Positions 2-23,352 of a stretch of 24,000 nucleotides of DNA are shown one piece after another. The DNA lies in contig QOCQ01000005.1 in assembly GCA_003574685.1 (NCBI GenBank), positions 136,127-160,126 of the forward strand, read 5' to 3'. Each line of letters starts with the position of its first letter. Within the stretch, counting starts at the first letter, position 1. The notes beneath the pieces were generated by a model, which was not told the origin of the DNA, searched no databases, and saw only the letters and a list, made by a program, of their open reading frames with translations. The position numbers and the translations under genes were made by a program. Source of the DNA: Rhodospirillaceae bacterium SYSU D60007. GTDB taxonomy: Bacteria; Pseudomonadota; Alphaproteobacteria; Reyranellales; Reyranellaceae.

Positions 2-235
2 TCGGGCGAGGCTGTTTCTGACGCAGTCATCTTCGCGACCCGGCTCGACATGGCGCCGGACGGCATGCCGACCATGACGGCGCCACTCGACGCACTGCCC
101 TCGACCGAGCCGGGCGTCTACAGGTTCAAGACGAAGCTCACGATGGCCGGCGCCTGGCGCCTGTCGCTCGCCGCCAAGGTCCAGGGCGAGAGCGGTACGC
201 TCGAAAGCAGACTGATCCTGAAGGCCGTGCCATGA
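2..235 (+). CDS. 3' fragment of a FixH/YtkA-like periplasmic domain protein; the 5' end lies outside the window
   Basis: The frame is open from nt 2 (..SGEAVSDAVIFATRLDMAPDGMPTM..GVYRFKTKLTMAGAWRLSLAAKV..). Its TGA overlaps the ATG of the next gene (ATGA at 232-235). It sits directly upstream of a CusB-like adaptor, as FixH/YtkA-type proteins often do. The family call is from recall only. Confidence 0.45.
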   Translation, partial: SGEAVSDAVIFATRLDMAPDGMPTMTAPLDALPSTEPGVYRFKTKLTMAGAWRLSLAAKVQGESGTLESRLILKAVP

Positions 236-1650: not shown

Positions 1651-4600
1651 TCGCACGCCTGATCGGGTGGTCCGCCCGCAATCTCGTCCTGGTCCTTGTC
1701 GGGACGACCCTCGCGATTGCGGCCGGGCTTTATGCACTGCGCACCCTGCCACTCGATGCCATCCCCGACCTCTCCGACGTCCAGGTCATTGTCTACACCG
1801 AATATCCGGGCCAGGCGCCGCAAGTGGTTGAGGACCAGGTCACCTATCCCCTCACCACCGCCATGCTGACCGTGCCGAAATCGAAGGTGGTGCGCGGCTT
1901 CTCTTTCTTCGGCGTGTCCTTCGTCTACGTAATCTTCGAGGATGGCACCGACCCCTACTGGGCCAGGAGCCGCGTCCTTGAATATTTGAGCGCCGCCGCC
2001 CGGCGATTGCCTGCCGGCGTAGTCCCTGGTCTTGGACCCGATGCAACCGGCGTCGGCTGGGTTTATCAATATGCGGTCATCGCCGAGCACATGACGCTGG
2101 CCGAACTGCGCTCGCTGCAGGACTGGGTGATCCGCTTCGCCGCGTCCAGGGCCGGCGGCGTCGCCGAAGTCGCCAGCGTCGGCGGCTTCGTCAGGCAATA
2201 CACGATCATTGCCGACCCCAGCCGGTTGCGCGCCCAGGGCATCTCGCTCGACCGGCTGCGCGAGGCGGTCCGCGCCAGCAATACCGATGTCGGTGGCGGC
2301 ACGCTGGAGCTGTCCGAGTTCGAGTTCATGGTGCGCGGCCACGGCTATCTGAAGAACGTCGCGGACATCGAGAACATTGTCCTCGCGACCGACAGAGGCG
2401 TGCCGCTCCGGCTGCGCGACGTCGCGCGTGTCGAGGTCGGCCCCGACGAGCGCCGCGGCATCGCAGAACTCAACGGCGAGGGCGAGGTGGCGAGCGGCAT
2501 CGTGCTGCAACGCTTCGGCGCCAATGCGCTGACCGTCATCGACAATGTAAAGCAGGCGCTGGCGGGGATCGCCTCCAGCTTGCCGGAGGGCGTTGAGATC
2601 GTACCGGTCTATGACCGTTCCGGGCTGATCGGACGGGCGATCGAGACACTGAAAAGCACGCTGGTCGAGGAAAGCCTCGTTGTTGCCCTGGTCTGCATCG
2701 TCTTCCTGCTGCATGTGCGCAGTGCGCTCGTCGCGATCCTGATGCTGCCCGTCGCCATCCTGATCGCCTTCGCCGCGATGAAGGCAATCGGTCTTGGCTC
2801 CAACATCATGAGCCTTGGCGGCATTGCGATCGCCGTCGGCGCCATGGTCGATGCCGCCATCGTCATGATCGAAAATGCCCACAAGCATCTTGAACGTGCG
2901 CCGGCCGACAAGCCGCGCATGGAGATTCTGGTCGTGGCGGCCAGCGAGGTCGGACCGGCGCTGTTCTTCAGCCTGCTCGTCATCACGGTTTCCTTCCTGC
3001 CGATCTTCACGCTGGAAGCGCAGGAGGGCCGCCTGTTCGGTCCGCTGGCCTTTACCAAGACATTCGCCATGGCGGCTGCGGCGCTGCTGTCGGTGACGCT
3101 GGTCCCCGCACTCATGGTGATCTTCGTGCGCGGCCGGATCATCGCGGAGCACCGCAACCCGATCAATCGCCTCCTCGTCTGGATCTATCGGCCGGTCATC
3201 CGCGCTGTTCTCCAGGCCAGGGTGCTGACCATCCTGCTCGCGCTCGTCGCGCTTGGGGCCACCGTGTGGCCGGCACGCCAGCTCGGCTCGGAGTTCATGC
3301 CGAATCTCGACGAGGGAACGCTGATGTATATGCCGACGACCCTGCCGGGTCTCTCGGTCACCAGGGCCGCCGAGCTCCTGCAGATGCAGGACCGGATCAT
3401 CAAGTCGTTTCCGGAGGTGGCTTCAGTCTATGGAAAGGCGGGCCGGGCGCTGACGGCCACCGATCCGGCGCCGATCGAGATGTTCGAGACGGTCATCAAT
3501 CTCAAGCCGAAAAGCGAATGGCGGCCCGGCGTCAGCGTCGAGAGCCTCAGGGCGGAAATGGACCGGGCACTGCAGTTCCCCGGCGTCTCGAACGCATGGA
3601 CCATGCCGATCCGCGCCCGCATCGACATGCTCGCCACCGGCATCCGTACGCCTGTCGGCGTCAAGGTGTTCGGCACCGACCTTGCTCAAATGGAGCGGAC
3701 GGCCCGGGAGATCGAACACGTACTGCGATCCGTGCCGGGAACCTCGAGCGCCTACGCCGAACGGGTGATCGGCGGTTACTACCTCGACATCGTGCCGGAC
3801 CGTGACGCGCTCGGCCGTTACGGCCTCGCCATCGGTGACGTCCAGGCCGTGGTCGCCACCGCGCTGGGCGGAGAAACGGTGACCACCACCGTCGAGGGCC
3901 GCGAGCGCTACAGCGTGGCGCTCCGCTATCCGCGCCACCTGCGCAGCGATCCGCAGGCGATCCGCCGGGACGTTCTGGTGGCATTGCCAGGCGGCGGAGC
4001 GGTGCCGCTCGGCGAGATCGCGAAGGTCGAACTCACCCGCGGCGCCACCTCGATCCGCACCGAAAACGGCCAGCTCGTCACCTACATCTTCGTGGACATC
4101 GCCGGCCGCGATCTCGGCGGCTACGTCGCCGAAGCCCGGCGAACCGTGGCGGATGCGGTGAAGCTGCCGCCCGGCACCTTCGTCTCGTGGAGCGGCCAGT
4201 TCGAATATCTCGAGCGTGCCGAAGCGCGCCTCGCCCTCGTCGTGCCGGTGACGCTGCTGATCATCTTCCTGCTGCTTTACCTCAATTTCCGTGCCCTGAC
4301 GGAGACGCTGATCGTGATGCTGTCGCTGCCGTTCGCGCTGGTCGGCGGGGTCTGGCTGATGTGGTGGCTGGGATTCAATCTCTCCGTGGCCGTGGCGGTC
4401 GGGTTCATTGCCCTCGCCGGGGTCGCTGCCGAGACCGGTGTCGTGATGCTGATCTATCTCGACCACGCCCTGAGGGAAGTGCGGGCCGAACGGGCTGCCG
4501 CAGGCCGTGCCTTCACCCGGTCCGACCTTTACGACGCCATCATGCGCGGTGCGGTGGAACGGGTGCGGCCGAAGATGATGACGGTCGTCGCGATCATGGC

Positions 4601-4814
4601 CGGTCTCGTGCCGATCCTGTGGAGCACAGGCACCGGCGCGGAGGTCATGCAACGCATCGCCGTGCCGATGATCGGCGGCATGCTGTCCTCCACGGTGCTG
4701 ACCCTCGTTGTCATTCCGGCGATCTATGCCCTGGTCAAGGGCCAGGGCCTGCCGCGCGAGGAGCTCGCCGTAGCCAGGGAATACGACCGCCAAGTAGCTG
4801 ATGCAGGACCCTGA
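1647..4814 (+). CDS. cusA: CusA/CzcA-family heavy-metal efflux RND pump
   Basis: 1055 aa with 12-TM RND architecture and two large periplasmic loops. Blocks typical of the HME family are present (GGIAIAVGAMVDAAIVMIEN, FFSLLVITVSFLPIF). Met-containing segments LMYMPTT, IEMFETV and AWTMPIRARIDMLATG fit the CusA three-Met Cu(I)/Ag(I) site. Confidence 0.93.
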   Translation: MIARLIGWSARNLVLVLVGTTLAIAAGLYALRTLPLDAIPDLSDVQVIVYTEYPGQAPQVVEDQVTYPLTTAMLTVPKSKVVRGFSFFGVSFVYVIFEDGTDPYWARSRVLEYLSAAARRLPAGVVPGLGPDATGVGWVYQYAVIAEHMTLAELRSLQDWVIRFAASRAGGVAEVASVGGFVRQYTIIADPSRLRAQGISLDRLREAVRASNTDVGGGTLELSEFEFMVRGHGYLKNVADIENIVLATDRGVPLRLRDVARVEVGPDERRGIAELNGEGEVASGIVLQRFGANALTVIDNVKQALAGIASSLPEGVEIVPVYDRSGLIGRAIETLKSTLVEESLVVALVCIVFLLHVRSALVAILMLPVAILIAFAAMKAIGLGSNIMSLGGIAIAVGAMVDAAIVMIENAHKHLERAPADKPRMEILVVAASEVGPALFFSLLVITVSFLPIFTLEAQEGRLFGPLAFTKTFAMAAAALLSVTLVPALMVIFVRGRIIAEHRNPINRLLVWIYRPVIRAVLQARVLTILLALVALGATVWPARQLGSEFMPNLDEGTLMYMPTTLPGLSVTRAAELLQMQDRIIKSFPEVASVYGKAGRALTATDPAPIEMFETVINLKPKSEWRPGVSVESLRAEMDRALQFPGVSNAWTMPIRARIDMLATGIRTPVGVKVFGTDLAQMERTAREIEHVLRSVPGTSSAYAERVIGGYYLDIVPDRDALGRYGLAIGDVQAVVATALGGETVTTTVEGRERYSVALRYPRHLRSDPQAIRRDVLVALPGGGAVPLGEIAKVELTRGATSIRTENGQLVTYIFVDIAGRDLGGYVAEARRTVADAVKLPPGTFVSWSGQFEYLERAEARLALVVPVTLLIIFLLLYLNFRALTETLIVMLSLPFALVGGVWLMWWLGFNLSVAVAVGFIALAGVAAETGVVMLIYLDHALREVRAERAAAGRAFTRSDLYDAIMRGAVERVRPKMMTVVAIMAGLVPILWSTGTGAEVMQRIAVPMIGGMLSSTVLTLVVIPAIYALVKGQGLPREELAVAREYDRQVADAGP

Positions 4815-4839
4815 CGTTCTGACCAGAAACCGATGGAGC

Positions 4840-5337
4840 ATGATCATGGCACCCAACCCGTTTCTATGCCGCCGGGCGTTGCTGGCGGGTGCAATGCACA
4901 CAGGCGTTGCGATCGCGCTGGCGCAGCCGTCATTCGCGGCCGACAAGCTTTCCCGGATCGTCGTGACCCGCGATCCCGCCTGTGGTTGCTGCGGGGCCTG
5001 GGTCGCGCATGTGCAGCAAGCCGGATTTCCAGTGGAGGTGATCGAGACGGGTGATCTCGCGCCGCTCAAGGGCAGGCTGGGGGTGCCTGAGGCACTCTTC
5101 GCCTGCCACACAGCCGAGGTCGAGGGCTACGCCATTGAGGGTCATGTGCCCGCCAGTACGATCAGGCGATTGCTCGTCCAGCGGCCGCAGGCCGCAGGCC
5201 TGGCCGTCGCCGGCATGCCTGTCGGTTCGCCGGGCATGGAAGTGCCGGGCGCGACGCCAGAAACCTACGAAGTCATTCTCTTCGGCCCGGGCCTGCGGCG
5301 CGTCTTTGCGCGTTACCGTGGGGCGCAGGAAGTCTGA
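4840..5337 (+). CDS. copG: DUF411 / CopG-like periplasmic metal-binding protein
   Basis: It carries the CxCC motif (DPACGCCGAW) and the CHTAEVEGYAIEGHVPASTIRRLL block typical of DUF411. The signal peptide has RRALLAG...AQPSFA-AD. The track ORF begins at 4801 inside cusA. ATG 4840 or 4846 is preferred because GGAG lies at 4835-4838. Confidence 0.75.
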   Translation: MIMAPNPFLCRRALLAGAMHTGVAIALAQPSFAADKLSRIVVTRDPACGCCGAWVAHVQQAGFPVEVIETGDLAPLKGRLGVPEALFACHTAEVEGYAIEGHVPASTIRRLLVQRPQAAGLAVAGMPVGSPGMEVPGATPETYEVILFGPGLRRVFARYRGAQEV

Positions 5338-11651: not shown

Positions 11652-12533
11652 CTATCCGGGACTGAGGCGGCGGGCAAGGACCACACGGGGAATGCCGCCC
11701 AAATCCTTGTGGGTGCTGACGGCGCCGAAGCCCGCATCCCGCACCAGACGGGCGACCGCGGCGGCCTGGCCACGCCCCACCTCGAGGGCGACAATCCCGC
11801 CGGGCTGCACCAGATAGCCGAGCTGGCCGACGAGGCGGCGGTAGCAATCCAGCCCGTCGGCGCCGCCGTCCAGCGCCAGCCACGGCTCGTGCTCCGACAC
11901 TTCCGGATCGAGGGTTTCGATGTCGTCACTGGGCACATAGGGCGGATTGGACACCACGACGTCAAACACCTCGGCGATCCCTTCCCCCCAGTCGCCTGAG
12001 CGGAACGCCGCGCGGCCTTCAAGGCCCAGGGCACGGGCGTTCTGGCGGGCTATCACCAGCGCGCGGGCGCTGCGGTCAACGCCAAGCCCCGTCGCCTGCG
12101 GCAACTCGTGGAGCAGCGCCAGCAACAGGCAGCCGGAGCCGACGCCGAGGTCCAGAATGCGCAGCTTCCGGCCGCGATAGGGAACGGCTGCCATCACGGC
12201 ATCGACAAGGGTTTCGCTGTCGGGCCGCGGCGTCAGCACATCCGGGGTGACCCGGAAGCGCAGGCTCCAGAACTCGCGCCATCCCAGGATGTGGGACATG
12301 GGCTCGCGCGCAAGGCGGCGTGCGGCCAGCCGCTCGACCCGCGCCACGACCCCGGCTTCCAGCGGCGCATCGCGGCGGGCGACGATTGTCTCCAGTGTCC
12401 ACCCTGTCGCCTCTGCTACCAGCAGCCGCGCCTCCAGCCGGCTCTCGGCAATGCCCGCCGCGGCGAGCCGGGCCGCCATCGCCTGTACCAGCGCCCCCGC
12501 GGTGGGCTTCGCCCCTGTCTGTTCCCCCGTCAT
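11652..12533 (-). CDS. prmC: Release-factor glutamine N5-methyltransferase PrmC (HemK)
   Basis: 293 aa with the catalytic NPPY motif (VVSNPPYVPS), the SAM-binding motif ILDLGVGSGC, and a HemK N-terminal helical domain. Confidence 0.9.
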   Translation of the reverse strand: MTGEQTGAKPTAGALVQAMAARLAAAGIAESRLEARLLVAEATGWTLETIVARRDAPLEAGVVARVERLAARRLAREPMSHILGWREFWSLRFRVTPDVLTPRPDSETLVDAVMAAVPYRGRKLRILDLGVGSGCLLLALLHELPQATGLGVDRSARALVIARQNARALGLEGRAAFRSGDWGEGIAEVFDVVVSNPPYVPSDDIETLDPEVSEHEPWLALDGGADGLDCYRRLVGQLGYLVQPGGIVALEVGRGQAAAVARLVRDAGFGAVSTHKDLGGIPRVVLARRLSPG

Positions 12534-12653
12534 GCTTTGGCAAGCTGGCCGCCCGCAGTAGCGGATGCAAGAGGCTTGCGCGGCCGGGCGCGGCGTCCAA
12601 CCCCGTCCGCGCGCCGGCCTGGCCCCGCCGGGCTCGCCCGATACAGGGTTGTA

Positions 12654-12702
12654 CCCTTAACGAAGCTCGAGCTTGTCCGTTGCAAGGGACCGCAACTTGC
12701 GG
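12654..12702. promoter_or_regulatory. Cluster of palindromes in the prmC / response-regulator divergent region (candidate operator)
   Basis: A perfect 12-bp palindrome aagctcgagctt (12663-12674) is flanked by ccctt-aacg ... cgtt-gc-aaggg. A second palindrome ccgcaa-c-ttgcgg lies at 12690-12702, 23 nt before ATG 12725. Confidence 0.3.
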
Positions 12703-12724
12703 CCTGCGGCGGACGTTGGGGTAC

Positions 12725-13078
12725 ATGGCATTGCGCGTGTTCGTTGCCGAGGACGAGGTCCTGATCGCCCTGGTCCTGCAGGATATCCTGGAAGAGCTGG
12801 GCCATTCGATCGTCGGCCCTGTGGCACGGGTCGAGGACGCCTGCCGGATTGCCCGCGAGGGCGCGTTCGAACTGGCCATCCTTGACGTCAAGCTGGCCGA
12901 CAGCGACGTCTATCCGGTAGCCGAAATTCTCCAGACCCGCGGCGTTCCCTTTGCCTTCGCTACCGGTTACGGCCGCGACAGCCTTGCGGCCGCCTTCCGG
13001 GCGCGCCCCATCCTGCCCAAGCCCTACACAGAGCCGGACGTGGCCGCCCTCATCCGGCAGATGTGTGACGCTGACTAG
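12725..13078 (+). CDS. Single-domain response regulator of the PFxFATGY ('FAT GUY', SdrG/MrrA-like) family
   Basis: 117 aa, receiver domain only. It has the acidic pocket E9-D10, the phospho-acceptor D54 (AILDVKL, nt 12884-12886), and an exact PFAFATGY motif at residues 75-82 (nt 12947-12970). The track ORF's 135-codon upstream extension has no receiver homology. Confidence 0.85.
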   Translation: MALRVFVAEDEVLIALVLQDILEELGHSIVGPVARVEDACRIAREGAFELAILDVKLADSDVYPVAEILQTRGVPFAFATGYGRDSLAAAFRARPILPKPYTEPDVAALIRQMCDAD

Positions 13079-14774
13079 TCCGCAGCGGCACGACGTTGCC
13101 GGTGCGCATGGCCACCAGCGCGGTTGCCGCCTTGCGCGCGAGCTCGTCCTGGCCGAACGGCTTTCCCAGCACGGCGCTCTCGCCGACATCGCCCAGCGCG
13201 CTGTGGTCGGCAAAGCCGGTAATGAACAGCAGGGCGAGTCCCGGGCGACGCAGCCGCGCCTGGCGGGCAACATCAGCGCCGCTCATCCCGGGCATGGCGT
13301 AGTCCAGGATCATCAGCTCGATTTCCGGCAACCGGTGCAGCATCTCCAGCGCCGCACCACCGCTGCCGGCCTCGTGCACGCGATAGCCGAGATCGCGCAG
13401 CATGGCGGCGGTAACCTCGCGCACGGGATGGTCGTCGTCGACCAGCAGCACCTGCACGCCGGCGAACTGGCCGGCAACCACCGCCGGTGGCGGCGCCTCT
13501 TCGGCACGCTCGCCGGCAGCCGCACGCGGCAGATAGATGCGCGCCGTGGTGCCCTCGCCCTCGCGCGACTTGATGCGGACGCCACCGCCTGACTGCTTGG
13601 CGAAGCCCAGCACCTGGCTGAGCCCGAGCCCCGAGCCCTTGCCGACGTCCTTGGTGGTGAAGAACGGCTCGAATGCCTTGCGCAGCACCATCTCCGACAT
13701 GCCGGTGCCCGTGTCGCTGACGCAGATGGCCACGTACTCTCCGGCGGGCGGCTCCTCGGGCCATGCCGGTGCCTGCAACGTGACATTCTCCGTATGCACG
13801 GTGAGTGTGCCGCCTTGAGTCATGGCATCGCGCGCGTTGATGGCGAGGTTGAGCACCGCCAGCTCAAGCTGTGTGGGATCGACCAGGGCGGGCCACAAAC
13901 CACGCTGCAGGTGCGTATCGATGCGGATGCGGCCACCCATCGTACTCTGCAGCAGGTCGCGCATGCCGGCCACCGAGCCGTTGAGGTCGATCACCTTCGG
14001 CTCCAGCCGCTGACGCCGCGAGAACGCCAGCAACTGGTCCGTCAGCCGGGCGCCGCGCTCAGCCGCCGTGCGCATGTAGCCCAGGCGCTGCATGAGCTTG
14101 CCGTCGACGCCGGCATTGGCCAGCCCCTTCTCCAGGAAGCCGATATTGCCCAGCACCACCGTCAGCAGGTTGTTGAAGTCGTGCGCCACGCCGGACGTGA
14201 GCTGGCCTACCGCTTCCAGCCGCTGCATCTGCCGCAGCGTGCTTTCGATCTTCTCCCGCTCCTCGATCTGGGCCACGAGCTGGCGGTTTGCAGCCGCCAG
14301 CTCAGCCGTGCGCTCCTGCACGCGCAACTCCAGCTCTTCGTTCAGCCGGCGGCTCTCGTGCTGCCGGGTTCGTCCGCGCAGGCCGGTGCGCACGGCGCTG
14401 ATCAGCGTCGTGGGATGAAAGGGCCGCTCCAGAAAGGTGACGTTGCCCAGCGCTCTCATCAGCCCGGCCGCGGCAGGATTGCGCTCGACGCCGCCGCCGT
14501 GGCTGGTCAGCAGCACAAACGGAAAGTCGGACCACGGCGGCTGCGACGCCACCCATTCGCGCAAGGGGCGAAGGTCCTGCCCGCGCAGCGCCTCCTCTGT
14601 CACCACCGCCAGGTCGGCGCCGTAGACAAGGCGCTCGACCAGTTCCGAAATGTCGACGCAGATGTCGCAGCGAAGCGCCGCCTCGCGCAGGATGCTCTTG
14701 GCGACCACGGCATCCCGGCCCCGCGGTGCGAGGATCAGCGTCCGGTCGGCCGCCGGCACTGCAAGGGTAATCAT
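13050..14774 (-). CDS. Hybrid sensor histidine kinase: N-terminal pseudo-receiver, coiled coil, HisKA, HATPase_c, C-terminal receiver
   Basis: 574 aa with H-box VAHDFNNLL, N-box LAINARDAM, G-boxes DTGTGM and GSGLGLS. The C-terminal REC domain has VDDD and ILDYAMPGM. The N-terminal domain of about 120 aa has a receiver-like beta/alpha pattern but lacks the acidic pocket and phospho-Asp (LILAPRGRDA, LAVVTEEAL). There are no TM segments. Its ATG overlaps the kaiC-like stop (ATGA at 14771-14774). Confidence 0.9.
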   Translation of the reverse strand: MITLAVPAADRTLILAPRGRDAVVAKSILREAALRCDICVDISELVERLVYGADLAVVTEEALRGQDLRPLREWVASQPPWSDFPFVLLTSHGGGVERNPAAAGLMRALGNVTFLERPFHPTTLISAVRTGLRGRTRQHESRRLNEELELRVQERTAELAAANRQLVAQIEEREKIESTLRQMQRLEAVGQLTSGVAHDFNNLLTVVLGNIGFLEKGLANAGVDGKLMQRLGYMRTAAERGARLTDQLLAFSRRQRLEPKVIDLNGSVAGMRDLLQSTMGGRIRIDTHLQRGLWPALVDPTQLELAVLNLAINARDAMTQGGTLTVHTENVTLQAPAWPEEPPAGEYVAICVSDTGTGMSEMVLRKAFEPFFTTKDVGKGSGLGLSQVLGFAKQSGGGVRIKSREGEGTTARIYLPRAAAGERAEEAPPPAVVAGQFAGVQVLLVDDDHPVREVTAAMLRDLGYRVHEAGSGGAALEMLHRLPEIELMILDYAMPGMSGADVARQARLRRPGLALLFITGFADHSALGDVGESAVLGKPFGQDELARKAATALVAMRTGNVVPLRTSQRHTSAG

Positions 14775-16288
14775 TCCTCGCTCCCCAACAGTGGAGCCTG
14801 TGTGCCAACATAGGCCGGCACGCCGCGCAGCACGCCCTGGAACGCCTCCAGCGGGGCACCCAGCCTGACGCCGCCCTTCCTGATGCGGAACTCGCGCAGC
14901 GTGTTCTCGTGCGGACCCGTGCGCTTCTTGAGTACGGAAATGGCCCGGCGCACTTCGCCCATCGCTTCGAAAAATCGCAGCAGAATGACCGTGTCCGCGA
15001 GGTAGGTCACGTCGATCGGCTGATCGACGTCGCCGACGAGGCCGTGCTGGGCCACTGTCAGGAATGTCGAGGTGCCGCGGCGGTTGAGATACTGAAGAAG
15101 CTCGTGCAGATGCAGGATACCGAACGGCTCGTTGAGCATTGAGGCCTGGTAGCCGTTCAGGCTGTCGATCGCCACCATCCTGATCGTGTCGCGATCAACG
15201 CAGGTGCGTACGCGGTGGGCGAACTCGCCGGGCGAGACCTCGGCGGCATCAAGCTGCTCAATGGCGAGTCGTCCGTTCCCGTGAAACGCCTCGATGTCGA
15301 TGCCAAGCTGCCGGGCGCGCGAAAAGAGCAGTCCGATCTCCTCGTCGAACAGGAACATCGCGGCATTCTCGCCCCTGGCCATCGCTGCCGCGACGAACTG
15401 CACGAGCAACAGGGTCTTGCCCGTCCCTGCCGGCCCGATGACGAGAGTGCTCGATCCCGCGGTGATGCCGCCGCCCAGCAGTGCGTCCAGATCGCCAATG
15501 CCGCTGCTGATCACGTCACCGGCCGAGCGCTTGCGATATGGCGCCGCCACCAGCCGCGGATACACCTCCACGCCGCCGGAGGAGATCCTGAACTCGTGAT
15601 AGCCGTCGCTGAAAGCCTGGCCACGCGCCTTCACGATGCGCAAGCGGCGGCGCGCGGCACCATAAACCGGCGCCGTCTGGTCGAGATGAAGCACGCTGTG
15701 GGCAATGCTGTGCACGGCCCGGTCCATAGACTCGGCCGTCAGGTCGTCCAGCAGGATGACAGTCGAATTGTGCCGCGCAAAGTAGTGCTTGAGTCCCAGG
15801 ATCTGGCGGCGGTAGCGCAACGAGCTCTGCGCCAGCAAACGGATTTCCGACAGGCTGTCGATCACCACACGCTGCGGGCGGGTGCGTTCGATGGCATCGA
15901 ACATGCGCTGCGTCGTCTCGCCAAGCTCCAGGTCCGAAGAGTAAAGCAGGCTCTGGTGCTGGTCGGGATCAAGCACGCTTTCCGGCGGCACCAGCTCGAT
16001 GATCTCGATCAGCTCGCCCAGCTCCCAGCCATGCGAGCGAGCGCCGGCGCGCAGCTCCGGCTCGGTTTCGGCGAGGCTGACGTAAATGCCGGACTCTCCC
16101 GCCGCAGCGCCGGCCAGCAGGAACTGCAGCGCAATGGTCGTCTTGCCCGTGCCCGGGCTGCCTTCGAGCAGATGAAGGCGATTGCGGGCCAACCCCCCGT
16201 CTGCCACGGCATCAAGGCCCGCAATGCCAGTGAGCGCACGGGGAAGCGCCGTCTCGGCGTTTGTGTCGACAGATGCAGACCTGTTCAT
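14771..16288 (-). CDS. KaiC-like double-domain RecA-superfamily ATPase
   Basis: 505 aa from ATG 16288 (MNRSASVD...). It has two Walker A motifs, GSPGTGKT (nt 16139-16162) and GPAGTGKT, and Walker B-like motifs VVIDSLSE and VAIDSLNG. The KaiC CII-type C-terminal block DTVILLRFFEAMGEVRRAISVLKKRTGPHENTLREFRI is present. The track ORF's 52 extra N-terminal codons run through the predicted promoter. Confidence 0.88.
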   Translation of the reverse strand: MNRSASVDTNAETALPRALTGIAGLDAVADGGLARNRLHLLEGSPGTGKTTIALQFLLAGAAAGESGIYVSLAETEPELRAGARSHGWELGELIEIIELVPPESVLDPDQHQSLLYSSDLELGETTQRMFDAIERTRPQRVVIDSLSEIRLLAQSSLRYRRQILGLKHYFARHNSTVILLDDLTAESMDRAVHSIAHSVLHLDQTAPVYGAARRRLRIVKARGQAFSDGYHEFRISSGGVEVYPRLVAAPYRKRSAGDVISSGIGDLDALLGGGITAGSSTLVIGPAGTGKTLLLVQFVAAAMARGENAAMFLFDEEIGLLFSRARQLGIDIEAFHGNGRLAIEQLDAAEVSPGEFAHRVRTCVDRDTIRMVAIDSLNGYQASMLNEPFGILHLHELLQYLNRRGTSTFLTVAQHGLVGDVDQPIDVTYLADTVILLRFFEAMGEVRRAISVLKKRTGPHENTLREFRIRKGGVRLGAPLEAFQGVLRGVPAYVGTQAPLLGSEE

Positions 16289-16326
16289 GCGCCTGGCTTG
16301 CCTGATTGCTCGCGTCAGATGCGAAG

Positions 16327-16352
16327 AACGTCGCGTACTGCCAACCGGTTCC
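16327..16352 (-). promoter_or_regulatory. EcfG (general stress response ECF sigma)-type promoter upstream of the kaiC-like gene
   Basis: The minus strand reads GGAAC (16352-16348), a 17-nt spacer cggttggcagtacgcga, then CGTT (16330-16327). This is an exact match to the alphaproteobacterial EcfG consensus GGAAC-N16-17-CGTT. The CGTT ends 38 nt upstream of ATG 16288. Confidence 0.55.
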
Positions 16353-16437
16353 AGCCGCCAAACCGCCCCGCCCACGCCCCATTTACCGCGGGCAATCGGC
16401 GGCCCTTGTGGTGAGGGCCGAAGCAGTCGCCGGAAGC

Positions 16438-16476
16438 GCGCCACTCCAGTGGCGCCGGCGGCGTGCCAACGCCGCC
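16438..16476 (-). terminator. Two tandem GC hairpins just after the antiporter stop (possible non-canonical terminator or insulator)
   Basis: The first hairpin is ggcggcg (16457-16463) / cgccgcc (16470-16476) with a 6-nt loop. The second is gcgccac (16438-16444) / gtggcgc (16449-16455) with a 4-nt loop. Neither is followed by a U tract. Confidence 0.35.
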
Positions 16477-16488
16477 ATCATGCGCGGG

Positions 16489-18735
16489 CTAGCTGGACAG
16501 CAGCATGATGGAGCGCGGGGATGCCGCTCCGACGGCCGAGACGATCGGCCCGAATGACAGCCTGTCGCCGGTTCGCGCGCTCACGCCCATGATGAGCAGG
16601 TTGTGATCGCCGCGACGCGCCTGGCGGAGGATGGCGTCGGCCGGCGAAGCATCGTTGCGCAGCGCGGTGCGGACCGCGACGCCGAACTGCTCACCCAGCG
16701 CCACGATGCCCTTGAGGATCTCGTCCGCCTCGCTGCGAGTCCTCACGCGTGGCCAGCGTCGCGGAGAAAACGTGGCAGCTTCCGGCGCCACATAGAGCGC
16801 TGTCACCGTTGCATCACTCGCGCGGGCGATGGCGAGCGCGACCTCCGCGGCACGGCCGGCATAGGCGGTGCCGTTCACCGGCACCAGAATATTCAGATGG
16901 TATCCTGCCGGGTCCTGCGCGTGCGGCCCGCGCGCCGCCACGATGGCAACCGGCCCCTCGAACGGCGCGGCGATCTCGGCCACTGCTTTGGCGAAGTCTC
17001 CCGTCTTGAGGATGGCGCCGTCCACGCCGACGGTCAGCAGGTCGTAGCCCTTGGCCGCCTCGGCGGCGACCAGCTCCGCCGGCATTGCGCTGCCGCGGCG
17101 CGCCGTCACATCTGCCGGCACGTTCGCGCCATCGGCGTCCGGCGCGGCACCGCTGGCGGCGTCGCGGGCGATCTGTTCGGCGTCGGCGTCACGCTCGCGA
17201 TCGGGCGGGCTCCGCCCGGCCTGCGCACTGGCGAGGTCGATCACTGTCACGGGCGTACCTCGCGGACTGGAAAGCAGACCTGTCAGGCGGGCGGCGAGCT
17301 TTCCGCTCGCGCTGCCGTCTGTGACTGCCAGCAGACGTTCCAGCCGTGGCACGAAGCCACGTGCCTCCTGCGCCTCCCGCTCCAGTCGCGCTGCCTCCTC
17401 GGGTTTGAGCGGCAGGCGCGCCAGCGCCCAGCGCAGCGTGGGCGGCATGGCCATGGTCGTAATCACCGCCATGGCGACGATCAGGCTGAACAGGTCGCGG
17501 TCGAGGACGCCAATCGACAATCCGATCGTGGCGACAATGACCTCGGTAGATCCCCGTGCATTCATTCCGCAGGCCAGCGCCAGCGACTCGCGCAATGACA
17601 GCCCACCGATCGTGCCGCCAACAAGCGCGCCGGCGAACTTGCCGATGCTCGCGATCAGGACCAGCCCCAATCCCAGAGCCACGAGCACCGGGTCCTTCAG
17701 GATCGACAGATCAGCGCCGAGCCCCGCGAGGCCGAAAAAGACGGGCATGAAAAAAGCCGTGATCAGGCCCCGGAGCTGCGCGTCAATGTGACGGGTCAGT
17801 ATGGGCGACTGGCCGACGAGGATGCCGGCCACAAAGGCGCCGAGCACGGTGTGAACGCCGATCGCGTGCGTTATCAACGCCATGACGCCCATGACGATGA
17901 TGATGGCCGTAATGACGGGCAGTTCGCTCACGAAGCTGTCGTTCGACCAACGGATAATGGCGGCGACCGCCCGCCGCCCCAGGGTGAAGCTGACGGCCAG
18001 AAAGGCCAGCGTGCCAAGAACGCTTTGTGCAAGAGCGGCAGGCTCAACAGCGCCATGCAAGGCAAGCCCGAAGATCATCGCCATGATGATCCAGCCGATC
18101 GTGTCGTCGATGACGGCAGCGGCGAGGATCACCTGGCCCACGTCGCGCCGCATGAAGTTCATCTCCCGCACGATGACGGCCACGATCTTGACCGAGGAGA
18201 TCGAGAGCGCCACGCCGAGAAACAGCGACGTCAGCAGCCGGCGATCCGGATCGGGCAGCAGTGATTCAGGAAGAAGCTGTCCCAGTGCCACACCGCAAAC
18301 AAACGGCACAGTGATGCCGGCCACTGAAACGCTGACGGCGGCGCGGCGCACCTGGTTGATCAGCGACAGGTCCGTTTCCATGCCCGCAACCAGCAGCAGC
18401 AGCAGAATGCCAAGCTGCGACACCGCCGCCAGCATGCTCTGCTGTACCTCGTTGCGTGGAAACACTTGATGCTGCAGCTCGGGCAGCAGAGCGCCAAAAA
18501 CGGAAGGACCCAGGAGAATGCCGGCAATCAACTGGCCCATGACGGCCGGCTGACCAAGGCGCTGGGCGGCTTCGCCCAGGAGGCGACCCGCCAGCAACAG
18601 CAGCACGATCTGGCCGATGAAGACCGCGATGGCCTGATCGCCGCCAGCCTCGGCGGCGAACGCCGGCGAAACAGACAGGATCGTGGCGAGAGCGGCGGAT
18701 GCGGCGATGAAACCGGCCGCGCACTTCCCGATCAC
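16489..18735 (-). CDS. CPA2-family cation:proton antiporter fused to two C-terminal universal-stress-protein (USP) domains
   Basis: 748 aa from GTG 18735, which forms a GTGA overlap with the upstream stop. It has a signal-like N-terminus (IGKCAAGFIAASAALATILSVSPAFA-AE), a Na_H_exchanger core (GQPAVMGQLIAGILLGPSVFG ...) and two USP-like halves (LAVTDGSASG... and ILVPVNGTAYAGRAAEVAL...NLLIMGVSARTG). Confidence 0.85.
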   Translation of the reverse strand: MIGKCAAGFIAASAALATILSVSPAFAAEAGGDQAIAVFIGQIVLLLLAGRLLGEAAQRLGQPAVMGQLIAGILLGPSVFGALLPELQHQVFPRNEVQQSMLAAVSQLGILLLLLVAGMETDLSLINQVRRAAVSVSVAGITVPFVCGVALGQLLPESLLPDPDRRLLTSLFLGVALSISSVKIVAVIVREMNFMRRDVGQVILAAAVIDDTIGWIIMAMIFGLALHGAVEPAALAQSVLGTLAFLAVSFTLGRRAVAAIIRWSNDSFVSELPVITAIIIVMGVMALITHAIGVHTVLGAFVAGILVGQSPILTRHIDAQLRGLITAFFMPVFFGLAGLGADLSILKDPVLVALGLGLVLIASIGKFAGALVGGTIGGLSLRESLALACGMNARGSTEVIVATIGLSIGVLDRDLFSLIVAMAVITTMAMPPTLRWALARLPLKPEEAARLEREAQEARGFVPRLERLLAVTDGSASGKLAARLTGLLSSPRGTPVTVIDLASAQAGRSPPDRERDADAEQIARDAASGAAPDADGANVPADVTARRGSAMPAELVAAEAAKGYDLLTVGVDGAILKTGDFAKAVAEIAAPFEGPVAIVAARGPHAQDPAGYHLNILVPVNGTAYAGRAAEVALAIARASDATVTALYVAPEAATFSPRRWPRVRTRSEADEILKGIVALGEQFGVAVRTALRNDASPADAILRQARRGDHNLLIMGVSARTGDRLSFGPIVSAVGAASPRSIMLLSS

Positions 18736-19226
18736 AATTTTTCCGGCTTGCTGTCCATCCGATAGCGGAAATCGCAGTGGCTGGCGCCCTGCATGATGGT
18801 TTGCGTGCGCTCCATGGCGATGCGCGGATCGTAGCCCTCGATAAAGGTGCCGTCGCGGTTGCACGACAGAAGATGGCCGATGTCGCCCAGCCCCATCGCG
18901 CGGTACATCTCCGCGTAGCGGCAGCGCGTCACGTTGAAGTCGAGATGCGTCTCGTCCTGCCGCACCGGCTCGATGCGCAGCGCGTCGCCCTGCGTCCAGA
19001 GCGGCTGGATGGCGGCGAAGCTGGCGATCGACGTTCCGCCCGGCGCCTGGGCCGCGAATTGCCGGCCGGCCTCGACGGCGGCCTTCTTTACGGCACGCTC
19101 GATCACACCTTTGGCTGCCGCTTCACCGAACGCTGCCTTCATCTCCTCGTAGATCGGCTTGATGATCTCGGCTTCGATGCGGCGGCGCTCGAGAATGCCC
19201 ATCGGGGCGGCGGCTGGCTGACTCAT
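18732..19226 (-). CDS. L-2-amino-thiazoline-4-carboxylic acid (ATC) hydrolase-family protein
   Basis: 164 aa with an ATG start. The C-terminal Cys-containing block FNVTRCRYAEMYRAMGLGDIGHLLSCNRDGTFIEGYDP...QGASHCDFRY matches my recall of the ATC_hydrolase family. Confidence 0.7.
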   Translation of the reverse strand: MSQPAAAPMGILERRRIEAEIIKPIYEEMKAAFGEAAAKGVIERAVKKAAVEAGRQFAAQAPGGTSIASFAAIQPLWTQGDALRIEPVRQDETHLDFNVTRCRYAEMYRAMGLGDIGHLLSCNRDGTFIEGYDPRIAMERTQTIMQGASHCDFRYRMDSKPEKL

Positions 19227-19271
19227 GGCTGGCTCCGTGGCTGCGAGAACGGCATGGTGATAGGCTGACGC

Positions 19272-20123
19272 ATGCCTTTCAAGTCCGGCACACGCGAGCA
19301 GAGGATGCTGACACGCACTATTCCCGCCAGCGGCGAGGCGTTGCCGGTGATCGGCTGCGGCACCTGGCGCGGCTTCGATGTCGGCAGCGATGCCGGCGCC
19401 CGTGCGCGGCTGGCCGAAGTACTGAAGGTGCTTTTCGCCGCCGGCGGCACGGTGATCGACAGCTCGCCGATGTACGGGACGGCCGAGGGCGTGGTCGGCG
19501 CGCTGCTGACGTCAATGGATCCGCACGCAAAAGCCTTCGTCGCCACCAAGGTATGGACGCAGGGCCGTGCTGCCGGTGTGGCGCAGATGGAGCACAGTCT
19601 TGAGCTCTTGCAGCGGCCGCGTCTGGAGCTGATGCAAATCCACAACCTTGTCGACTGGCGCACGCAGCTTGACACGCTGCGCACCTGGCAGGCCGAGGGG
19701 CGCGTGCGCTACATCGGCATCACCCACTACACAGCCGGCGCCCACGCCGATCTGGAGGCGGTGATCCGGGCCGAGCGGCTCGATTTCGTGCAGCTCAACT
19801 ATTCGCTGGAGGACCGGGCGGCCGAACAGCGCTTGCTGCCGCTTGCCGCCGAACGCGGCGTTGCCGTGCTGGTGAACCGGCCGCTGGGCGGCGGCAGCCT
19901 CGCCCGCGCCCTGCGCGGACGGCCCCTGCCCGGCTGGGCCGCCGATATCGGCTGCACGAGCTGGACGCAGGTGCTGCTGAAGTTCGTGATCTCCCATCCT
20001 GCCGTCACCTGCGTCATCCCCGGCACCGGCGATCCCGCACACATGGCCGACAACGTGCGTGCAGGCCTTGCCCCCCTGCCCGACCCCACCCTGCGCACCC
20101 GCATCGCAGCGGAATGGCCGTAG
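19272..20123 (+). CDS. Aldo/keto reductase
   Basis: It has a GEALPVIGCGTW N-terminal motif, DSSPMYG, and a (beta/alpha)8 AKR pattern through to PGTGDPAHMADN. An alternative start at ATG 19305 (MLTRTIPASG...) is equally plausible. Confidence 0.88.
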   Translation: MPFKSGTREQRMLTRTIPASGEALPVIGCGTWRGFDVGSDAGARARLAEVLKVLFAAGGTVIDSSPMYGTAEGVVGALLTSMDPHAKAFVATKVWTQGRAAGVAQMEHSLELLQRPRLELMQIHNLVDWRTQLDTLRTWQAEGRVRYIGITHYTAGAHADLEAVIRAERLDFVQLNYSLEDRAAEQRLLPLAAERGVAVLVNRPLGGGSLARALRGRPLPGWAADIGCTSWTQVLLKFVISHPAVTCVIPGTGDPAHMADNVRAGLAPLPDPTLRTRIAAEWP

Positions 20124-20159
20124 CTTGCCTTCCCCGCGCGGAGCCGTTACCGCAAAAGC

Positions 20160-20244
20160 CTTCATGGTGAGCTTGTCGAACCATGAAGGCGCCGCAGGAC
20201 CGGCAGTACGGGCCGCTTCATGGTTCGACAGGCTCACCATGAAG
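20160..20244. repeat. Composite REP/MITE-like palindromic element ('MVSLSNHE / SWFDRLTMK' repeat type)
   Basis: Two 29-bp copies lie in inverted orientation: 20160-20188 cttcatggtgagcttgtcgaaccatgaag and 20216-20244 cttcatggttcgacaggctcaccatgaag. They differ by 1 mismatch and are separated by 27 bp. Each copy is itself a 9-bp-stem hairpin. The element sits in a convergent intergenic gap. Confidence 0.8.
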
Positions 20245-20316
20245 CGGTTCTTGACCGTCGCTCGCGTTGAGCGGAGGCACCCGCTAGTCGGGCTCGCCAA
20301 TGACGGTTCGCAGTAC

Positions 20317-21396
20317 TCACGCGCCGCTGAGGCGGACGTCGAAGGTCTTTGTCTCGCCGTTGCGTACCACTTCGACCCTGACAGTGGAGTCGACCGGCGA
20401 CAGCGCCACGCGACTGCGCAGGTCGGAGGCGGAATGCACGGGTCGACCGTCGACCGACACGATGACGTCACCCACGCGCAGGCCCGCCTTCGCTGCACCC
20501 GATCCGGGCTCGACCTGCTGGATGCGCACGCCCAACCGGCCGCTGGCATCGGGCACCGTGTCGCTGACCAGCACGCCCAGGCGCGCGTACTGTACCTTGC
20601 CGGTGCGCACGATCTGGTCCATCACCGCGCGCGCAATGTTGGTGGGCACGGCAAAGCCAATGCCGACATTGCCGCCGCCCGGCGCGATGATCGCCGAGTT
20701 GATCCCGACCAGCCGTCCGTAGAGGTCGATCAGTGCGCCGCCCGAGTTGCCGGGATTGATCGGCGCATCGGTCTGGATGAAGTTCTCTAGCCGCCCGTTT
20801 CCCAGCCCGCTACGGCTGAGCCCGCTGACAATGCCTGCCGTTACCGTCTGGCCGATGCCGAACGGATTGCCGATGGCAACCACGTAGTCACCCACCTTCA
20901 GCGCGTCGGAATTGCCCAGCGGGATTGCCGACAGCCGCTCCGTCGGAATGCGCAGGACGGCGATGTCGCTGGTGCTGTCGGCACCCACGAGCTCGGCGTT
21001 CAGCACGCGCCGGTCCGACAGGGTGACGCGGATCTGCTGCGCATTGGCCACGACATGGGCGTTGGTCAGCACGTAGCCGCGGCTGGCATCGACGATCACG
21101 CCGGAGCCCGCCGCCAGCGCCGCCCGCCCGCGCGGCTCCGGCTGGGACTGCCCGAAGAAGCGGCGGAACAGCGGATCGCGCAGCAGCGGATTCTGCTGCT
21201 GTGGCACGTTCTGCACCACCGCCACACTGACCACGGCGGGCATGACGCGCTCGACCAGCGGTGCGAGTGTCGGCACGCCATCGCGCATCAGCGGCAGCGA
21301 ACCGACATCGCGCTGCGCCAGGGCCGGCGCCGTTACGAGAATCAGCAGCGGCAGGATCAGGCGCCCGCCGCGACGCACCAGGATCGACAGGAACAT
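20317..21396 (-). CDS. S1C (HtrA/DegS-like) periplasmic serine protease with one PDZ domain
   Basis: 359 aa with a signal peptide ending APALA-QR. The catalytic triad contexts are TNAHVV, SDIAVL and GNSGGAL. A single C-terminal PDZ domain is present (GSGAAKAGLRVGDVIVSVDG). Confidence 0.9.
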   Translation of the reverse strand: MFLSILVRRGGRLILPLLILVTAPALAQRDVGSLPLMRDGVPTLAPLVERVMPAVVSVAVVQNVPQQQNPLLRDPLFRRFFGQSQPEPRGRAALAAGSGVIVDASRGYVLTNAHVVANAQQIRVTLSDRRVLNAELVGADSTSDIAVLRIPTERLSAIPLGNSDALKVGDYVVAIGNPFGIGQTVTAGIVSGLSRSGLGNGRLENFIQTDAPINPGNSGGALIDLYGRLVGINSAIIAPGGGNVGIGFAVPTNIARAVMDQIVRTGKVQYARLGVLVSDTVPDASGRLGVRIQQVEPGSGAAKAGLRVGDVIVSVDGRPVHSASDLRSRVALSPVDSTVRVEVVRNGETKTFDVRLSGA

Positions 21397-21488
21397 CGGT
21401 AACCTCGGGAGCCTCGCCGGAGGCCCCTGATGTTGACGCGGAAAATGGCGCTCGCAAGGCAGACGACCTTAATGCCCCGCCGCCCTGG

Positions 21489-22220
21489 CTAGCGCAGCAA
21501 CAGGCGGAGGCCGGCGAGGGCCAGGATCACGGCCAGCATGTAGCGCGTGAGCCGGTTGGTCATCACGTGGCGTGCGATGGTGCCGCCCAGCGCTGCGCCG
21601 AACAGGGCGGCGCCGGCGTAAAGCGCGATGCCAGGCGCGACCGGTTGGCCCGCGAGCGTCACGGCGGCCAGGCCGACCGCCGAGTTGGCGAGAATGTAGG
21701 GTGCCGACAGCGCGGCGACCTGCCGGGGCGTGCCCCAGCCGAGCAGGATGATCAGCGGTGCCAGGAAGGCGCCGCCGCCGATGCCGGTCAGACCGGCAAG
21801 GAAGCCGGTGACCGCGCCCGCCAGCAGCGCTGGCCCGGTGCCGACAGGGCGGACCGCCGCAGTGTCGGCGCCGCGCTTCAGCAGCATGAGGCCGGCGGCC
21901 GCCAGCAGCAGAACGCCGGTCAGCACCAGGTAGAGTCCGCCATCGAGCAGCACCAGCCCGCCGGCGAAGGCGGCCGGCAGCGCCGGCACAAGGAAACGGC
22001 CCAGCAGCGTCCAGTCGATGCGGCCGTCGCGGTGCAGCCATAACGTAGCGTAACCCGCCGCCACCACGTTGAGCAGCAGTGCCGTCGGCCGCATCTGCTC
22101 GGCTGGAAAGCCGGCCAGTGCCATGGCGGCGAGAAACGCCGTGCCGCCCGCCTGCCCGGCGGTAGCGTAGAGCAGCGCCAGCGCGGCGAAGATTACCGCC
22201 AGCGACGCCTGGCCGCTCAT
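21489..22220 (-). CDS. TauE/SafE-family (DUF81) anion/sulfite exporter-type permease
   Basis: 243 aa from ATG 22220; the track start at 22232 is a TTG. It is a polytopic Gly/Ala/Leu-rich membrane protein with the two-fold repeat typical of TauE/SafE. Confidence 0.82.
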   Translation of the reverse strand: MSGQASLAVIFAALALLYATAGQAGGTAFLAAMALAGFPAEQMRPTALLLNVVAAGYATLWLHRDGRIDWTLLGRFLVPALPAAFAGGLVLLDGGLYLVLTGVLLLAAAGLMLLKRGADTAAVRPVGTGPALLAGAVTGFLAGLTGIGGGAFLAPLIILLGWGTPRQVAALSAPYILANSAVGLAAVTLAGQPVAPGIALYAGAALFGAALGGTIARHVMTNRLTRYMLAVILALAGLRLLLR

Positions 22221-22275
22221 CGCGGCACGCAACGCACGCGCCTGCGGGCGCGCAGCCCGGTGGCCGCGCTCCGCC

Positions 22276-23352
22276 TCACGCCTCGACGTCGGCGAGGCGC
22301 GCAGCCTCGTCGTCAGCGATCAGCGCCTCGACGATCTTGTCGAGCGACGAGCCGTCCATGACCTTGTCGAGCTCATAGAGCGTCATGTTGATGCGGTGAT
22401 CGGTGCAGCGCCCCTGGGGGAAGTTGTAGGTGCGTATGCGTTCGCTGCGATCGCCGCTGCCGACCTGGCCACGGCGTGAGGCCGCGCGTTCCGCATCGAG
22501 CCGCTGCCGCTCGGCCTCGTAAAGGCGCGCGCGCAGGATCTTCATCGCCTTGGCCTTGTTCTTGTGCTGGCTCTTCTCGTCCTGCTGGCTGACGACAATA
22601 CCGGTCGGCAGATGCGTGATGCGCACCGCGCTGTCGGTGGTGTTGACCGACTGGCCGCCCGGCCCCGACGAGCGGAAGACATCGATGCGCAGATCCTTGT
22701 CGTCAATCCTGATGTCCACCTCTTCGGCCTCAGGCAGCACGGCTACCGTCGCCGCCGAGGTGTGGATGCGGCCCTGTGCCTCGGTGGCAGGCACGCGCTG
22801 CACGCGGTGCACGCCCGACTCGAACTTCAGCCGCGCGAACACGTCCTTGCCGGTGATCTCGGCCACGGCCTCGCGGTAGCCGCCCAGGCCCGTCTCCGAA
22901 ATCTCCATGATCTCGAACTTCCAGCCGCGCAGGGCCGCATAGCGCTGATACATGCGAAACAGATCCGACGCGAACAGCGCCGCCTCCTCGCCGCCGGTGC
23001 CGGCGCGCACCTCGAGGATGGCGTTGCGGGAATCGGCTTCATCGCGCGGCAGCAGCATGAGCTTGATCTGCCTGTCGAGCGCCGGCACGCGGTCCTTCAG
23101 GGCCGCGAACTCCTCCTCGGCCATGGCCTTCATGTCGCGGTCGGTGGCCGGATCGGCGATCATTGCCGCCAGGTCGCCCGCCTCCTTCTGCGCCTTGCGC
23201 AGTGCGGCCACGGCATCGACCAGCGGCGTGAGATCGGCATATTCCTTCGAAACCTGGCCGAACTTCGCCGCATCCAGCGTGCCGGCCGACAGCATGGCCT
23301 GCAGCTCGGCATGCCGGTGCACGACCTGGTCCAGTTTGGCATCCAGCGACAT
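22276..23352 (-). CDS. prfA: Peptide chain release factor 1
   Basis: 358 aa with the GGQ motif ([20 protein letters not shown]). The RF1-type PxT tripeptide is read as PAT in [16 protein letters not shown]. The whole length looks RF1-like. Confidence 0.95.

Follow-up and report, generated by a model that had tools for sequence, protein, structure and literature searches.

Does an EcfG-type site in front of a kaiC-like gene act as a promoter, and does it bring a KaiC-type ATPase into the general stress response (GSR)? The locus that raises this question lies in the window, by which we mean the whole 24-kb stretch of DNA analysed. The window encodes a ClpB protein that shares 94% identity with its Vineibacter terrae counterpart, with the next matches in Reyranellaceae, and that therefore identifies the host as an alphaproteobacterium, the group in which the PhyR-NepR-EcfG pathway operates. 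The core GSR genes phyR, nepR and ecfG are absent from the 24-kb window. Comparative sequence evidence makes it very probable that the site is a functional EcfG-type promoter and that the operon behind it, encoding a KaiC-like protein and a hybrid kinase with a putative pseudo-receiver, is a conserved member of the general-stress regulon. The features on which the argument turns are as follows.

16327..16352, minus strand: EcfG-type (ECF15-like) promoter, with the -35 box GGAAC at 16352-16348, a 17-nt spacer and the -10 box CGTT at 16330-16327.
16289..16326, minus strand: predicted short 5′ leader, deduced from the promoter geometry, with the start expected a few nt downstream of CGTT.
14771..16288, minus strand: kaiC-like gene, 505 aa, matching PF06745 twice (E=4e-72) and solved KaiC structures over its full length.
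13050..14774, minus strand: hybrid histidine kinase, 574 aa, with putative pseudo-receiver, coiled coil, HisKA, HATPase_c and receiver (Pfam; N-terminus by model).
12725..13078, plus strand: single-domain FATGUY response regulator with the signature PFAFATGYG, matching Sma0114 (2LPM, 1.6e-27) and SdrG (5IEB, 1.3e-20).
about 16400-16476, minus strand: GC-rich hairpins after the antiporter-Usp gene, with three possible stems, a possible transcript boundary.
16489..18735, minus strand: Na+/H+-exchanger-Usp fusion gene, upstream of the kaiC-like gene.

The preliminary description of this DNA reported a minus-strand GGAAC-N17-CGTT ending 38 nt before the kaiC-like ATG, within a 200-nt gap, and these coordinates are confirmed: the two boxes are separated by the 17-nt minus-strand spacer CGGTTGGCAGTACGCGA, the CGTT ends 38 nt from the ATG at 16288, and the motif lies inside the 200 nt that separate that ATG from the antiporter-Usp stop codon at 16489. 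The box sequences, the 16-17 nt spacing, the orientation and the short distance to a coding start that characterize an EcfG promoter are all found at 16352..16327. A search of both strands of the 24 kb for GGAAC-N16/17-CGTT returns this site as its one exact match, and with the relaxed patterns GGAAC-N16/17-NGTT, NGAAC..CGTT and GGAAN..CGTT it is still the sole intergenic match in the window, which bears out the earlier statement that no other intergenic region holds an equally good one. No sigma-70-like site was found between 12000 and 19500. The motif also agrees with the published S. melonis consensus GGAAC-N17-20-GTT, which is enriched within 100 bp of coding starts (PMC6599016), so that its identification in the preliminary description as the EcfG signature is well grounded. 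Set beside the EcfG (ECF15) promoters of S. melonis, Bradyrhizobium and Caulobacter (SigT), the site shares the GGAAC box, the 16-17-nt spacer, the CGTT box, a proximity of ~100 nt to the start and an alphaproteobacterial host. The downstream genes differ, and a KaiC-like gene is unreported in the regulon papers and supplements searched.

Within the window, positions 16341-16352 also form a half-palindrome, GGAACCGGTT, a weaker version of an inverted repeat, GGAAC...GTTCC, that lies within the promoter spacer of four of the 49 motifs (loci L012, L013, L014 and L027) and at the homologous locus L092 on the pAt plasmid of A. fabrum. A second regulator, acting as a dimer, may bind this repeat, in which case its site would overlap the -35 box.

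Taken by itself, a single occurrence in one window could arise by chance in GC-rich intergenic DNA, in which case another promoter, or read-through from the ATC-hydrolase and antiporter-Usp genes, would serve the operon. Dinucleotide shuffles predict 0.11 (N17) plus 0.10 (N16) exact matches over both strands of the 24-kb window, a total of about 0.2 for this 9-base motif. The chance of a correctly oriented match within about 150 nt of the kaiC start is about 0.001, computed from the background rate of the motif in the compared loci given below. Read-through is also given room by the hairpins at 16400-16476, which are not convincing terminators. The preliminary description counted two hairpins after the antiporter gene; hairpins are indeed present there, with three possible stems rather than two. 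A U tract is missing, the predicted fold is no more stable than that of shuffled sequence (z = -1.0), and no terminator-like site was called there, so that the hairpins are not supported as terminators after the antiporter gene. Transcription continuing from the antiporter-Usp gene is therefore possible. Scans of the window with Rfam models and for tRNAs found nothing.

The chance explanation was weighed against orthologous loci, which the preliminary description had named as a place to check its reading. KaiC-like relatives number in the thousands, and many are 72-76% identical to the window protein, including those of Bradyrhizobium elkanii, B. manausense, Xanthobacteraceae, Stellaceae and Acetobacteraceae. 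The comparison covers nine loci from a species-representative genome collection and 80 metagenome loci, together with loci from named taxa; the motif was sought on the sense strand in the 300 nt upstream of the gene, and a locus was counted if its upstream sequence reached 120 nt or more. Grouped by identity of the KaiC-like protein to that of the window, the counts are as follows.

At least 68% identity, 46 loci: exact GGAAC-N16/17-CGTT in 25, GGAAC-N16/17-NGTT in 41.
62-67% identity, 34 loci: exact GGAAC-N16/17-CGTT in 5, GGAAC-N16/17-NGTT in 7.
At most 61% identity, 7 loci: exact GGAAC-N16/17-CGTT in 0, GGAAC-N16/17-NGTT in 0.

To allow for relatedness among the close orthologues (at least 68% identity), their upstream regions were grouped at 80% identity into 42 clusters, 23 of which carry the exact motif and 38 the relaxed GGAAC-N16/17-NGTT, against shuffle expectations for the close-orthologue upstream regions of 0.07 loci (exact) and 0.28 loci (relaxed). 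The motif is thus conserved before the kaiC-kinase pair across about 40 independent lineages. Recurrence at this scale argues that the match in the window is not accidental, and a chance origin is very improbable. The same conclusion follows from density: the 25.6 kb of DNA upstream of the gene at all loci contain 31 exact motifs (1.21 per kb), and the remaining 903 kb of the same loci, searched on both strands, contain 10 (0.011 per kb), an enrichment of about 110-fold.

The form of the conserved sites is informative as well. The boxes persist across loci while spacers and flanks vary, and positions left free by the search pattern are also biased, with a pyrimidine after GGAAC in 47/48 sites and a G before CGTT in 37/48. 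The five close orthologues that fall outside the relaxed pattern keep GGAAC(C/T)TT together with a variant -10 box ending in TT. In 41 orthologues the -10 box ends 60-178 nt before codon 15, with a median of 101 nt, compared with 80 nt in the window. The B. elkanii site, GGAACCGGCAATGCTGCCACGGCGTT, has its -10 box ending 35 nt before the ATG, a layout nearly identical to that of the window. Orthologues in a Stellaceae MAG and a Hyphomicrobiales MAG also carry the motif upstream, and it is absent upstream of the orthologue in the one Acetobacteraceae MAG inspected. The -10 box of the A. fabrum homologue reads CGTC. No EcfG-type motif was found upstream of the plasmid homologues of Caballeronia and Paraburkholderia, both Betaproteobacteria, a class not known to have EcfG.

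Plasmid-borne homologues from Agrobacterium, Sphingobium and Azospirillum (64-67% identity) were set aside as members of a different sub-family, in which the kinases are longer and the motif is mostly missing. In part of the KaiC sub-family at 62-66% identity, a higA antitoxin-like gene stands directly before kaiC and replaces the EcfG-type promoter; examples are L101 2068-2430 from Caballeronia, where it overlaps kaiC, and the gene upstream of ~2495 in L103 from Microvirga.

In several loci a further exact EcfG-type motif occupies the other strand of this intergenic region (~2410 on the minus strand of L047, ~2864 on the minus strand of L048, and also in L051 and L060-L062). In L047 and L048 this second motif faces a large gene for a PAS-type sensor of at least 754-915 aa, an arrangement that suggests divergent GSR promoters.

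A conserved promoter could still be read by another ECF sigma factor of similar specificity, which would leave the operon outside the PhyR-NepR-EcfG pathway. An AAC in the -35 box and a CGT in the -10 box are common to many ECF sigma factors, and NGTT or other -10 variants occur in many of the orthologues, both of which speak for this alternative. Against it, GGAAC-N16/17-CGTT is the specific EcfG consensus across alphaproteobacteria, and S. melonis genes with experimentally determined EcfG dependence include the same NGTT variants as well as GCAAC variants (PMC6599016). The distribution of the motif points the same way, as it is found in several alphaproteobacterial families and is missing in the betaproteobacterial homologues, and the neighbouring genes that carry the same motif include the PAS sensor gene and a stress-protein-like gene. 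We regard control by another ECF factor as distinctly unlikely and favour EcfG as the sigma factor that would use this promoter.

The protein encoded behind the promoter is a genuine relative of KaiC. Independent gene calling on the source metagenome contig gave the same start codon for the 505-aa protein, the same 4 nt shared with the kinase gene and a regulator gene on the opposite strand. End-to-end comparison with solved structures gives 8zn5 at E=2e-61 and S. elongatus KaiC at about 5e-51. The translation shows a Walker A motif in both KaiC domains, GSPGTGKT and GPAGTGKT, and alignment to solved KaiC places A-E at the catalytic glutamate positions E77-E78 of the first domain and an acidic pair, D315-E316, in the second. 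Residues T428-Y429 align with the phosphosites S431-T432, and with a tyrosine at the T432 position the protein has one canonical phosphosite at most. Neither kaiA nor kaiB is present in the window or at the orthologous loci, where the gene after kaiC is always a hybrid kinase. The protein is a stand-alone double-domain KaiC, and the genes that make up a KaiABC or KaiBC oscillator are not found with it.

The kinase is the constant companion of this protein. The start of its gene shares 4 nt with the end of kaiC, and in all close orthologues a kinase of the same type, 63-79% identical, is encoded directly after kaiC, so that the conserved unit is the kaiC-like gene plus a translationally coupled hybrid kinase. 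The dimerisation domain is HisKA (PF00512) rather than HWE/HisKA_2, and the DHp/catalytic core is closest to the Caulobacter cell-cycle kinase CckA (5idj, E=9e-43). Residues 1 to ~120 matched no Pfam family. An AlphaFold model of this N-terminus, built from 39 homologues (pLDDT 89.8), shows a (beta-alpha)5 receiver fold followed by a long helix, and the top Foldseek matches of the model are all receiver domains. The acidic pocket is absent, with A16-P17 after strand 1, T59-E60 after strand 3 and R117 in place of the conserved lysine, and on the strength of the model the domain is therefore read as a pseudo-receiver.

The same domain recurs, at 30% identity (E=1e-13), on a HisKA_2-type kinase encoded on pSymA of S. 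meliloti. At that locus (L100 3420-6310) a KaiC paralogue with 42% identity is followed by the HisKA_2-type kinase and then by a single-domain regulator. Assignment of the paralogue to the Sma0113/Sma0114 operon was considered and rejected, as the FATGUY motif is missing from the regulator and the DNA before the paralogue has no EcfG motif. A pseudo-receiver shared by two kinase classes, each beside a KaiC protein, is a good candidate for the domain that reads KaiC, and its presence on the S. meliloti kinase shows that kinases of the class in control of the GSR can be connected to a KaiC module.

The second neighbour, the FATGUY regulator, stands in a looser relation to the operon. The preliminary description used an adjacent FAT-GUY regulator to tie the KaiC-type ATPase to the GSR circuitry, and the protein is a true FATGUY regulator, sharing the PFxFATGY signature of SdrG (S. 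melonis) and Sma0114 (S. meliloti), a likeness drawn from sequence. Its gene is however convergent with the kinase gene and not co-transcribed with it, and it lies next to kaiC in only two of about 89 related loci. It is thus a possible partner that falls outside both the operon and the conserved unit. The 3′ ends of the kinase and regulator genes overlap by 29 nt (13050-13078), which could lead to transcriptional interference or to antisense pairing between the transcripts. Two degenerate motifs precede the regulator on the plus strand, TTAAC-N16-CGTT at 12657-12681, ending 43 nt before its ATG, and GCAAC-N17-CGTT at 12692-12717, ending 7 nt before it. Both had been described earlier, at 12654-12702, and both are real, but the spacer of the GCAAC version is 17 nt rather than 16. 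As GCAAC variants occur among EcfG-dependent S. melonis genes, weak EcfG control of the regulator is possible.

The wider surroundings contribute little to the conserved unit, as the genes flanking the kaiC-kinase pair are different at every locus and the antiporter is not a conserved neighbour at orthologous loci. The genes prfA (22276..23352) and prmC (11652..12533), which are usually adjacent, are separated in the window by about 10 kb (12534-22275) that holds genes for a DegP-like protease, an aldo-keto reductase, an ATC hydrolase, the antiporter-Usp fusion, the kaiC-kinase operon and the regulator; the GC profile of this insert is not atypical. Elsewhere in the window, plus-strand genes at 232-5337 encode an HlyD/CusB-like membrane-fusion protein, an AcrB/CusA-like RND pump and a DUF411 protein, and likely form a metal-efflux operon.

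These observations bear on how far the operon belongs to the GSR beyond its promoter. One possibility, compatible with EcfG control, is that the promoter is EcfG-dependent while the KaiC-kinase pair serves as the output module of an unrelated pathway, the FATGUY neighbour being a coincidence. The convergent regulator that is not a conserved neighbour, the HisKA-type kinase with its CckA-like core outside the HWE/HisKA_2 class controlling PhyR, and the flanking genes that change from locus to locus all favour it, and the related pseudo-receiver heading the HisKA_2-type kinase beside the S. meliloti KaiC paralogue counts against it. We give an unrelated output about an even chance.

The reading of the site as a functional EcfG promoter suggests the following mechanism. 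EcfG-RNA polymerase would bind the -35 box GGAAC and the -10 box CGTT and start transcription a few nt downstream, giving a bicistronic mRNA for the KaiC-like double ATPase/autokinase and the hybrid histidine kinase. Under stress, phosphorylated PhyR would free EcfG from NepR and the KaiC-kinase pair would be made. The nucleotide or phosphorylation state of the KaiC hexamer, with T428 as its single site, may then be read by the pseudo-receiver of the kinase, by analogy with cyanobacterial SasA/CikA and the Pseudomonas pairs described below, and the kinase/phosphatase output would be set through the kinase's own receiver domain and passed to a downstream partner. EcfG dependence, the position of the transcription start, the contact between KaiC and the pseudo-receiver and the downstream output are all inferred. 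The preliminary description placed the KaiC-type ATPase in the GSR as target, feedback element or timer. The operon as a target is well supported by the comparative evidence of promoter conservation in alphaproteobacteria, and the feedback and timer roles are hypotheses. A more specific version, a conserved GSR-induced timer of stress duration in which a slow change of KaiC state switches the kinase through its pseudo-receiver and, by way of a PhyT-like relay or single-domain FATGUY regulators, acts back on the phosphorylation of PhyR, thereby setting how long the GSR lasts, is speculative and rather unlikely.

One of the two closest described parallels comes from Pseudomonas, where KaiC-like genes peak in stationary phase and affect resistance to osmotic and oxidative stress, where KaiC-like/kinase/regulator modules interact physically and have been proposed as stress timers, and where, according to Terrettaz et al., the nearest relatives outside Pseudomonas are in Rhizobiales (bioRxiv 10.1101/2022.01.26.477890). 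Like the window operon, the P. putida and P. protegens modules combine a stand-alone KaiC, unaccompanied by KaiA or KaiB, with a (hybrid) histidine kinase in one predicted operon and have a single-domain regulator nearby, and their expression, tied to stationary phase and stress, is counted as a further likeness. The parallel is drawn from description and spans a different host class and sigma factor, as Pseudomonas has no EcfG. The regulator in the window also differs in being of the FATGUY type, convergent and not a conserved neighbour, and the KaiC-kinase interaction, demonstrated in the Pseudomonas modules, is predicted for the window.

The other parallel, an alphaproteobacterial one, is the kaiC2-kaiR2 cluster of M. 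extorquens, where KaiC proteins are described as controlling temperature-dependent UV tolerance and heat tolerance, with a phenotype in leaf colonisation (Iguchi et al. 2018, as reviewed in PMC8069551). This cluster pairs kaiC with one regulator gene, and its KaiC has a single phosphorylated serine, S426, close to T428 of the window protein, again a likeness by description; that review treats PhyR and KaiC apart and reports no EcfG promoter (PMC8069551). With cyanobacterial KaiC and its partners SasA and CikA, the window protein shares the double domain with a Walker A motif in each half, a residue that could be phosphorylated at the position of S431 and the prospect of output through a partner histidine kinase, with a pseudo-receiver in the partner as in CikA and KaiA. 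It departs from the cyanobacterial system in the missing KaiA and KaiB, the tyrosine for T432, the alanine for the first catalytic glutamate of the first domain and the N-terminal placement of the pseudo-receiver on a hybrid kinase, and oscillation is not evidenced.

The preliminary description considered the connection between KaiC and the GSR not to be an established one, and no paper linking KaiC with EcfG was found in the literature searched. A listing of the orthologue under another name in regulon tables, such as that of 2009 for B. japonicum, is possible. Searches for KaiC with PhyR or the general stress response gave reviews with separate sections on each, or unrelated papers, and those for KaiC in Bradyrhizobium gave only the kaiBC operon of photosynthetic strains. 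Supplements of GSR-regulon papers hold no entry for 'KaiC' or 'circadian', and the organisms concerned may lack an orthologue or name it differently.

As a promoter the site is of an ordinary type, and as far as found the conserved regulon member behind it is undescribed in the literature searched. The finding is of moderate interest, as non-circadian KaiC homologues gain a defined regulatory context. Many bacteria other than cyanobacteria carry stand-alone KaiC homologues, whose role is poorly understood, and this promoter ties non-circadian relatives of the clock protein to the stress response. A conserved general-stress promoter before a large alphaproteobacterial KaiC-kinase family amounts to a testable statement on when these proteins are made, and an orthologue in culturable Bradyrhizobium offers a tractable system. 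Placement in the GSR regulon fits the stress phenotypes described for Methylobacterium and Pseudomonas, and it would add to the general-stress regulon an ATPase/autokinase and a hybrid kinase, a kind of module with the potential to influence how the response is timed or remembered.
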